Shown here piece by piece: positions 49,673 to 50,833 of a stretch of DNA of 64,000 nt. Origin of the DNA: an uncultured Parcubacteria group bacterium. Lineage in GTDB: Bacteria > Patescibacteriota > Patescibacteriia > UBA9934 > CAMTUG01. Within the stretch, counting starts at the first letter, position 1, and each line of letters starts with the position of its first letter. The translations under genes and the position numbers were made by a program. The notes beneath the pieces are model-generated. The model ran no database searches. It saw only the letters and a list, made by a program, of their open reading frames with translations, and was not told the DNA's origin. The stretch is taken from positions 87,490 through 151,489 of the forward strand of contig CAMTUG010000004.1 of NCBI GenBank assembly GCA_947084965.1, written 5' to 3'.

Positions 49673-50833
49673 TTACCCTTTGGGGGTTTGAGAGGATGTT
49701 CGTGGTTTAAGGGGTGTTTCAGGTTCATTTTGATAATTCAACCGAACAACTTCGGATAGTTCATGAGCATTCCCGTGGCTCAGAATTCCGAGATAGGAGG
49801 AAACCGACTCCTTCTTTCCGCTCTCCTCGAGTTTTTTCAGCATTCTCCGTTTGGTCGTTGTCCGCAGCACTCGGTGATGTGGAAAGTTTACCCAGCCCAA
49901 AAAGTCCACGCCGGATGCAAGAGTGGCGATGGAAACCTTGTCCGGATGCAAGGCCAGATGCAGGCTCGCATCCAGAAACGAGGCAATGCGAGGAAGAATG
50001 CCTTCAAGGTATTCTCGCCGTTCGTGTAAGATGACGAAATCATCGGCATAGCGAATATAGAAAGCAACTCGAAGCTTTCTCTTCACATAGTGGTCGAACG
50101 CGTTCATGTAAATGTTGACCAGCAGCTGGCTGGTGAGGTTTCCGAGTGGCAAACCGACGCCGAGCTTGCCATCGGTATGAAAACTTTCAATAACTTCCGA
50201 TAGCAACCACATAATATCCGTATCATCGACATGCCTTTTGATGATGCCGATAAGAATCTCGTGATCAATATTCGCGAAGAACTTTCGTATATCGCATTTC
50301 AAAACCCAGGCTGTACGCGTATGGTTCCTGGAAGCTTTAGCGGCAAATTTCTGGAGACGGTTAATTGCGCGGTGCGTTCCCTTACCCTCACGGCAGGAGT
50401 AGGAGTCAAAGATAAACTTACGGTCGAAGAATGGATACAGAATTCGATAAATAGCGTGATGGAGAAGCCGATCCCGAACCGTGGCTTTATGGATATCCCT
50501 CGGCTTCGGATCATTAATTTTGAATGCATGGTATCCGCCGTGCCGATACGTCTTGTTTTTAAGATCATCGTTCAGGGCAGTGACATTGTCCAGGAGATGC
50601 AGCCCGAAGTCGGCGACATCTTCTCGCTTTCTCTTCCCGGACAAAAACTCCTGCCAGGCGGCAAACAAATTTTCAACAGAAATGATATCCTGATACGTAC
50701 TATGGAGCCGCGCCCCGAACTCTCTCTCTCTCTCTCTCTCTCTCTCTCTCTCTCTCGTGTCTCGTCCGCAAGCGCGACGATTCTCCAGCGCGTCAAAGAG
50801 GGATATTTGGTTTGGATGAACATTGCGCCGCAT
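49673..50833 (-). CDS. Diversity-generating retroelement (DGR) reverse transcriptase
   Basis: RT motifs PKPRDIHKA, RDRLLHHAIYRILYPFFDRKFIFDSYSCREGKGTH and YADDFVIL, plus the DGR-specific motif-4 signature LGNLTSQ ([I/L]GxxxSQ). An N-terminal (Arg-Glu)6 is encoded by the (GA)n tract. Confidence 0.85.
   Translation of the reverse strand: MRRNVHPNQISLFDALENRRACGRDTREREREREREREFGARLHSTYQDIISVENLFAAWQEFLSGKRKREDVADFGLHLLDNVTALNDDLKNKTYRHGGYHAFKINDPKPRDIHKATVRDRLLHHAIYRILYPFFDRKFIFDSYSCREGKGTHRAINRLQKFAAKASRNHTRTAWVLKCDIRKFFANIDHEILIGIIKRHVDDTDIMWLLSEVIESFHTDGKLGVGLPLGNLTSQLLVNIYMNAFDHYVKRKLRVAFYIRYADDFVILHERREYLEGILPRIASFLDASLHLALHPDKVSIATLASGVDFLGWVNFPHHRVLRTTTKRRMLKKLEESGKKESVSSYLGILSHGNAHELSEVVRLNYQNEPETPLKPRTSSQTPKG

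Follow-up and report, generated by a model that had tools for sequence, protein, structure and literature searches.

A CT repeat read in frame by the antisense-overlapping avd and reverse transcriptase genes: a candidate phase switch of diversity-generating retroelements in CPR bacteria

The stretch of DNA analysed here, hereafter the window, comprises 64,000 nt of contig CAMTUG010000004.1 from an uncultured Parcubacteria group bacterium and carries a diversity-generating retroelement (DGR). Its avd (accessory variability determinant) and reverse transcriptase (RT) genes are divergent and overlap antisense over 132 nt (50702-50833), from the avd ATG at 50702 on the plus strand to the RT ATG at 50833 on the minus strand. 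Within the overlap lies a CT dinucleotide tract that is translated as (Leu-Ser)6 on the plus strand (Avd residues 7-18) and as (Arg-Glu)6 on the minus strand (RT residues 27-38). On the basis of sequence comparison we consider it quite likely that slipped-strand mispairing at this tract makes avd, and here probably also the long form of RT, phase-variable, and in this way gates DGR mutagenesis.

The RT and Avd matches in Pfam (RVT_1, E = 2e-23, and PF22296 bAvd, E = 6e-14), an adenine-biased pair formed by a template repeat (TR) with its variable repeat (VR), and the location of the VR at the target gene's 3' end identify the locus as a DGR with the order target-VR-TR-(avd antisense)-repeat-RT (Table 1). 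The RT translation contains the motif LGNLTSQ, fitting the [ILV]GxxxSQ of the DGR clade, and thousands of DGR-type RT homologues were found in the Candidate Phyla Radiation (CPR). TR and VR form a 132-nt pair with 83% identity, 20 of the 22 differences falling at TR adenines, and the VR lies inside the last 50 codons of the target open reading frame (ORF), a 740-aa product with no match in the Pfam search.

Tandem Repeats Finder reports the tract as a single perfect array at 50720-50756 (period 2, 18.5 copies, 100% matches), that is (CT)18 followed by C. The initial annotation had described a (TC)18 tract of 36 bp read in frame in both genes; the repeat and its double reading are confirmed by the ORFs and the array, and only the size needs correction, to 37 nt, an assembled length that could itself be imprecise. 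The tract is the sole dinucleotide array of at least five units in the 64 kb, the other simple runs being only A8, T8 and G8, and it ties for the longest in its (GA)n family (range 10-37 nt). It is free of interruptions and exceeds the length at which repeats become unstable.

The conserved Avd core starts at ATT 50780, from which the product continues ILQRVKEGYL, and the conserved RT core begins at Tyr47 (codon 50695-50693) and reads YQDIISVENL. The RT ATG at 50833 lies antisense to CAT, the codon for the conserved His45 of Avd. Directly before Tyr47 the window has ACG, so that the start of a short RT form is missing; the same codon is ATG in the close relatives L083, P0188, P0002 and P0004. 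At the L010, L008, L021, P0100 and P0036 junctions (e.g. L169, ~1480-1515) the start codons stand in a reciprocal antisense relation: MRPRH, the beginning of short-form RT, is encoded exactly antisense to MTRPH, the beginning of Avd, and each ATG is the other's His codon (ATG/CAT). The 5' ends of avd and RT thus share 15 nt even if the long form of RT is disregarded.

A repeat at the avd/RT junction of related retroelements

For comparison, 160 loci were fetched by alignment of the RT core only, which avoids bias from tract-encoded residues; a regular expression for the Avd helix-1 motif missed most loci, and tblastn anchors were used instead. The loci are not fully independent phylogenetically, and only one pair, both members with G9, exceeds 95% identity. 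The RT homologues are CPR/Patescibacteria proteins with at most 77% identity. In most of them the conserved Y.DIIS.ENLL is directly preceded by an ERERE run, which differs in length and upstream of which the gene calls lie in different frames. Avd homologues mostly follow the pattern M-x(3-8)-(LS)n-D.AS-IL.RIKEGYL; in some of them this place is taken by a Pro run, and some were called only from an internal Met. Throughout the loci having enough upstream DNA, avd is divergent from and adjacent to RT (139/139), and the two conserved cores are 21-106 nt apart.

Comparison of orthologous DGR loci, as suggested in the initial annotation, shows a simple sequence repeat (SSR) in 130 of 138 measured junctions, the other 8 having none. 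A (GA)n tract of 10-37 nt occurs in 29 junctions, namely those of loci whose Avd is at least about 48% identical to that of the window, and a poly-G run of 6-14 nt, mostly G8-G11, in 99. One junction each has (GT)n and (CT)n on the RT-sense strand, and one further population has (GGCT)8 at the same junction position. The repeat-bearing loci span Avd identities of 28-100%. Comparable repeats number 122 in 8,635 junction bases against 4 in 739,383 flank bases (137 loci), a ~2,600-fold enrichment, and the tract is therefore not explained by chance. The occurrence of five unrelated repeat types at one position points to mutability, and not a sequence motif, as the conserved property.

No such repeat was found in an outgroup of 70 DGR-type RT loci (0/70). 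In viral loci of the same clade (IMG/VR, L209-L218) the junction repeat is absent from 8 of 9, as against its presence in 130/138 cellular CPR loci, which suggests that cellular genomes favour the putative switch whereas phage genomes do not. Judging from these 8 viral and the 8 cellular loci without it, the repeat is dispensable for basic DGR function.

Tract length was compared within six sister populations, that is, sets of contigs from different samples with flanks 99.3-100% identical, retrieved via exact proteins whose calls exclude the repeat. Length varies in four of the six. The GA tract of P0100 measures 19, 19, 21, 27, 21, 25, 25, 27 and 25 nt in contigs with 0-3 mismatches in 1,880 nt; the CT tract of P0188, which belongs to the window's sub-clade (Avd 89% identical), 15, 15, 21, 15, 15, 27 and 21 nt; the CT tract of P0348, here on the RT-sense strand, 18, 26, 18, 24 and 18 nt; and the poly-G run of P0344 is G10 in six contigs and G11 in two. 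Within each of P0344 and P0348, some avd alleles are ON and others OFF. The GA tract of P0036 (9 nt, six contigs) and the GGCT array of P0288 (eight units, three contigs) are invariant; that of P0036 is fixed out of frame for avd, and its constancy fits a length threshold for slippage. The slipped-strand mispairing postulated in the initial annotation is thus backed by these populations, and slippage, as read from the tract lengths, occurs in this family. An assembly artefact was considered as the source of the variation and appears unlikely, as the changes are discrete steps of 2 nt or 1 nt between identical flanks, seen with different assemblers and in different samples, and as the G11 allele of P0344 is linked to a SNP close by.

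In the window and its relatives L001 and L002 the tracts measure 37, 15 and 19 nt, so that all three phases are occupied and avd is in frame only in the window. All seven P0188 contigs (L178-L184) have 15, 21 or 27 nt, i.e. steps of three units that keep one phase, in which avd is OFF and the RT-sense ORF is open through the tract; this could be due to chance (about 1 in 9) or to selection on the RT frame. For the window's own population one other assembly was found (L207, Logan ERR3478686), which is 100% identical over 8,472 nt and ends inside the tract after 28 nt of CT, a break that we take to be expected from a k=31 assembler (Logan). It was reached via the neighbouring GmrSD gene, and a contig from the same run, L208, via HsdR; both are uninformative on tract length. 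A look-up of P0141 returned a single contig only.

Reading frames through the repeat

The codons next to the avd core indicate whether the repeat is translated. In the (GA)n family no ATG, GTG or TTG lies between the repeat and the avd core (0/29), and before the core Ala at -2 uses all four of its codons while TCN, AGY and ACN all occur for Ser/Thr at -1. In the poly-G family the four Pro codons are about equally frequent at -1, and Leu at -2 is encoded by TTG, TTA, CTG and CTT. The residues just before the avd core are therefore under protein-level selection. An in-frame avd ATG is found 6-21 codons upstream of the core in 16/16 repeat-less relatives (8 cellular, 8 viral), compared with 48/128 of the loci that bear a repeat (Fisher p = 7e-7). 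From the former we infer that avd starts upstream of the repeat position, so that the repeat would sit in a translated leader whose frame it scrambles. Two other candidate starts were rejected: GTG 50757 directly after the tract, which is out of frame in the window and in L001, and, in the poly-G family, the TTG two codons before the core, since the same Leu is also written TTA, CTG and CTT.

On the opposite strand, RT-sense frame A is the antisense frame whose codons are aligned with those of avd. In 29/29 (GA)n loci it stays open between the repeat and the complement of the conserved Avd His codon; the other two frames are open in 8/29 (B) and 0/29 (C). The His codon is CAT, the antisense of ATG, in all 29; the corresponding RT-sense codon in the poly-G family is ATG in 11 loci and GTG in 6. 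Codons that would read as stops on the antisense strand (TTA, CTA, TCA) are avoided in the overlap of (GA)n-family avd genes, with 0/77 Leu/Ser codons against 101/487 elsewhere (p = 9e-8); the poly-G family has no such avoidance in its avd overlap (84/315 vs 457/1866). The open frame A, the invariant ATG and the avoidance of antisense stops together support the maintenance by selection, in the (GA)n family, of a long RT ORF running from 50833 through the tract. A gene model with both starts on the far side of the tract, as first annotated, is thus upheld for avd by codon conservation and the repeat-less relatives and for RT by the frame-A statistics. The initial annotation also offered an alternative in which RT starts after the tract and only avd is affected. 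This holds for most relatives, as RT has its own ATG after the repeat, and is hence phase-independent, in 68/99 poly-G loci; it does not hold for this window.

Unit gain and loss were simulated on the window. The avd start is in frame only at 31, 37 or 43 nt, i.e. in one phase of three. For RT, the in-frame start is ATG 50833 in the avd-ON phase, a TTG only in the next phase, and a TTG or an ATG in the third. The earlier expectation that slippage would shift both genes at once is thus only partly right for the window, as RT retains some start whatever the phase. Of the (GA)n-family loci in phase 0, 10/10 have a start for both genes, and of those in phase 2, 7/10 have none for either; counting ATG starts only, both genes are ON in 11 loci, both OFF in 10, and 8 are discordant. 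In the OFF phases, avd lacks any canonical start upstream of helix 1.

Proposed switch and rival explanations

We propose that the CT tract acts as a slipped-strand contingency repeat in the translated 5' leaders of the antisense-overlapping avd and long-form RT genes. Replication slippage would add or remove 2-nt units, and only junction lengths that are a multiple of three would keep the conserved cores in the frames of ATG 50702 and ATG 50833. Gain or loss of one or two units would cut Avd to a short out-of-frame peptide and detach RT from its conserved start, leaving it fortuitous alternative starts, and a change of three units would merely lengthen or shorten the (LS)n and (RE)n leaders; such changes appear to be tolerated, since leader lengths vary widely between lineages. 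In the reconstituted BPP-1 DGR, inactivation of avd reduces retrohoming to background (PMC12875486). As Avd is needed there for cDNA synthesis and retrohoming, OFF phases should stop adenine mutagenesis of the target, which would freeze the current VR sequence until later slippage restored activity. The loss of Avd protein in OFF phases, its effect on DGR activity, the reversibility and the adaptive value are all inferred. For CPR DGRs at large, we lean towards a selected contingency repeat in the avd leader, shared in frame with the antisense RT in the (GA)n family, by which hypermutation itself would be turned ON and OFF stochastically.

Several observations weigh against this proposal. The avd-ON state is not above random phase, with 13/29 loci against 12.7 expected and 35/99 against 38.3 expected, and selection for function is not visible in the frame statistics, although random phases across lineages fit fast switching. 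In the two (GA)n populations sampled, avd is OFF in every contig (9 and 7). As some in-frame start of the window RT survives each phase, its switching may be incomplete, and the sole other assembly of the window's population ends within the tract and says nothing on its length. The Avd requirement is known only from the BPP-1 system, and transcriptional slippage could blur phases set at the DNA level.

Some of these points would also suit a repeat that tunes expression instead of switching it, with every tract length yielding some protein because frame changes are buffered, which could come about through RNA-polymerase slippage, ribosomal frameshifting, alternative or near-cognate starts, or the short form of RT. 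Random phases without ON enrichment, whole populations in OFF phases with RT, TR and avd cores intact, the three-phase RT starts of the window, and near-cognate CTG, ATT or ACG codons at the short-form RT start position of some loci would all be in line with it. We nevertheless regard such tuning as unlikely, because repeat-less relatives are in frame in 16/16 cases where an irrelevant frame would be free to drift, and because the OFF-phase frames of avd offer no canonical start before helix 1. Moreover, transcriptional slippage is documented mainly on long A/T runs, not on dinucleotide or tetranucleotide units. The absence of ON enrichment would also be expected if the tract were a non-adaptive slippery sequence in a dispensable leader, the out-of-frame loci being decaying DGRs without any selected regulation; the degenerate or compound tracts in L014, L018 and L011 and the short, fixed, out-of-frame tract of P0036 could be read in this way. 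This seems quite unlikely to us, as unselected perfect repeats decay quickly, yet 130/138 loci keep long uninterrupted tracts at one position, ~2,600-fold over background and with five unrelated repeat types having arisen at the same site; in addition, the RT-strand ORF upstream of the tract is open with a conserved ATG even in out-of-phase lineages, so that its usefulness recurs.

A role of the tract as a nucleic-acid element with the frame being incidental, be it a promoter spacer as in hifA/hifB, an H-DNA, triplex or G-rich structure, a purine-rich surrogate for the RT ribosome-binding site, or a DGR RNA motif, would agree with its location between divergent genes, with the purine-rich RT-sense strand (GA or G in 128/130 loci) and with its distance of 4-25 nt upstream of an RT ATG in many loci. 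It is nonetheless very improbable: tracts of 10-37 nt do not fit a promoter spacer of 16-18 nt, which the 37 nt of the window exceed, a promoter scan found no sigma-70-like hexamers flanking the tract, the purine rule does not hold for the RT-sense (GT)n, (CT)n and (GGCT)n variants, same-clade loci without the repeat argue against an essential RNA or ribosome-binding element, and the codon evidence speaks for translation of the site.

Genomic setting, known systems and meaning

Table 1 Coordinates of DGR locus features in the window
Feature	Position	Strand	Description	Basis
avd	50702..51130	+	142 aa; tract read in frame in the present assembly	ORF and PF22296
avd N-terminal leader	50702..50779	+	MEPRPE-(LS)6-RVSSASAT, from ATG to conserved core; holds the repeat
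DGR reverse transcriptase, long form	49673..50833	-	386 aa from ATG 50833	RVT_1 and N-terminal comparison
RT N-terminal extension	50696..50833	-	MRRNVHPNQISLFDALENRRACGRDT-(RE)6-FGARLHST; antisense to and codon-aligned with avd 5' end
Perfect (CT)18.5 / (GA)18.5 simple sequence repeat	50720..50756		37 nt	Tandem Repeats Finder
Template repeat (TR)	51146..51277	-	on the RT strand, upstream of antisense avd
Variable repeat (VR)	51599..51730	-	3' end of target gene
DGR target gene	51581..53803	-	740 aa, VR at C-terminus
Terminator-like G+C-rich hairpin, then T-run	51118..51136	-		consensus scan only

On the RT strand, the terminator-like hairpin (CCGCGCTTAAACGGCGCGG followed by the T-run) directly adjoins the 3' side of the TR and overlaps with the stop codon of avd. 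It could be the 3' end of the TR transcript, before an antisense run into avd; if the TR transcript ended there, RT would need its own promoter inside avd. The L208 contig ends inside the VR (window ~51721), which would fit either a VR that is heterogeneous among the reads or a tangle of TR with VR in the assembly graph.

The DGR is situated in a defence or mobile island (window 45794-49438 and 54450-57503, with the annotations of L207 and L208). Its neighbours include a GmrSD type IV restriction enzyme, a DUF2779/Cas4-like nuclease, a serine recombinase, a type I restriction-modification system (HsdR, with HsdM and a putative S subunit beyond) and N6/N4 methyltransferases, among them a ParB fusion. 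A tmRNA gene is found at 31445-31826 (+), with the tag peptide ANLITKLRNAYSAPAFVPAFA. Such genes are common integration hotspots, and this one may be relevant to the structure of the nearby island.

The region 12000-24000 has 60-70% G+C, compared with 45-57% elsewhere in the window, and is made up of degenerate tandem repeats of 135-414 nt together with (TCGGTG)n arrays, one of them with 19.7 copies and 91% matches at 21523-21640. The repeated motif CCGTCGCAGTCGTCGTC suggests that the minus strand here codes for very large repeat proteins rich in Asp and Cys. One and the same pair of heptamer arrays (AAATTCG then TTCGTAT) is present both at 10753-10872 and at 30740-30859, 20 kb apart, bracketing this high-GC block; CCACTTA heptamer arrays are located at 23856, 25779 and 29747, and an 89-nt repeat holding an inverted repeat at 21942-22030 and 23811-23899. 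The heptamer arrays and the 89-nt repeat may mark the boundaries of elements or serve in regulation. Apart from the CT tract, one multi-copy array in the window combines 100% matches with a notable score, a 12-nt tandem repeat, (TGCTTCCAGCTC)3.2, at 58093-58130.

Frame switching by 5' CT repeats is known from the Helicobacter pylori outer-membrane protein genes sabA, hopZ and babB. In oipA/hopH of the same species, a (CT)n tract in the 5' coding region likewise encodes Leu-Ser repeats, and slipped-strand mispairing switches translation ON and OFF (PMC10564699). These genes are closest to the CPR repeat in mechanism, sharing the (CT)n in the 5' coding region, the Leu-Ser product and the frame switching; there, however, the repeat serves one gene on one strand encoding a surface protein, whereas here it is read on both strands by two antisense-overlapping genes for enzymes of targeted mutagenesis. 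In topology the closest case is the fimbrial switch of Haemophilus influenzae hifA/hifB, where (TA)9-11 between divergent genes controls both at once via -35/-10 spacing, and the same genes can be under different repeat classes in different strains (PMC2651432), a parallel to the GA, G, GT, CT and GGCT repeats found here. The hif repeat is intergenic and transcriptional, in contrast to the DGR repeat of 10-37 nt, which lies in translated leaders and would act through the frame.

With canonical DGRs such as that of Bordetella phage BPP-1 (mtd-VR-avd-TR-brt) the present locus shares the LGxxxSQ motif of RT, the Avd four-helix bundle, adenine-specific TR/VR differences and the VR at the target C-terminus. 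In BPP-1, however, avd, TR and brt are co-oriented in one operon without a repeat, whereas the CPR clade has avd antisense between TR and RT, with a repeat in the 5' overlap. Phasevarions, governed by repeats in the mod genes of restriction-modification systems, and the reversible inactivation of mismatch-repair mutL or mutS by repeats are also comparable, in that a simple repeat toggles an enzyme altering many outcomes and forms a switch above a diversity generator. Their scope is global methylation or the genome-wide mutation rate; here the repeat would govern a hypermutator that is templated and site-specific and works on a single target gene.

Consistent with the impression of the initial annotation that nothing of the kind had been described for DGRs, no DGR with a junction repeat or a phase-variable avd or RT was found in full-text searches of the literature, which did not cover one key paper, and a 2024 DGR survey makes no mention of avd orientation or repeats. 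We rate the present case as the known principle of SSR contingency switching transferred to a DGR, where a single repeat is read on both strands. If the reading is right, it would be, to our knowledge, the first case of one simple repeat controlling the frame of two genes on opposite strands.

The natural regulation of DGR activity was called 'an exciting frontier' in a 2026 study (PMC12875486). Here the regulator would be built into the DGR element itself, in a group of bacteria, the CPR, noted for the abundance of DGRs. Many CPR avd and RT genes are probably mis-annotated at present, their calls starting in three frames or at an internal Met, and surveys of DGR 'activity' should take the phase of the repeat into account. 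The catalogue of phase variation would gain a repeat that is translated on both strands. Continuous mutagenesis of a working binding protein is costly; a heritable and reversible OFF state would allow a lineage to keep a good variant, with the capacity for renewed diversification preserved in the population. If the proposed switch is real, it would constitute a second-order evolvability device, by which a lineage would at times diversify a binding protein and at other times hold on to a useful variant.

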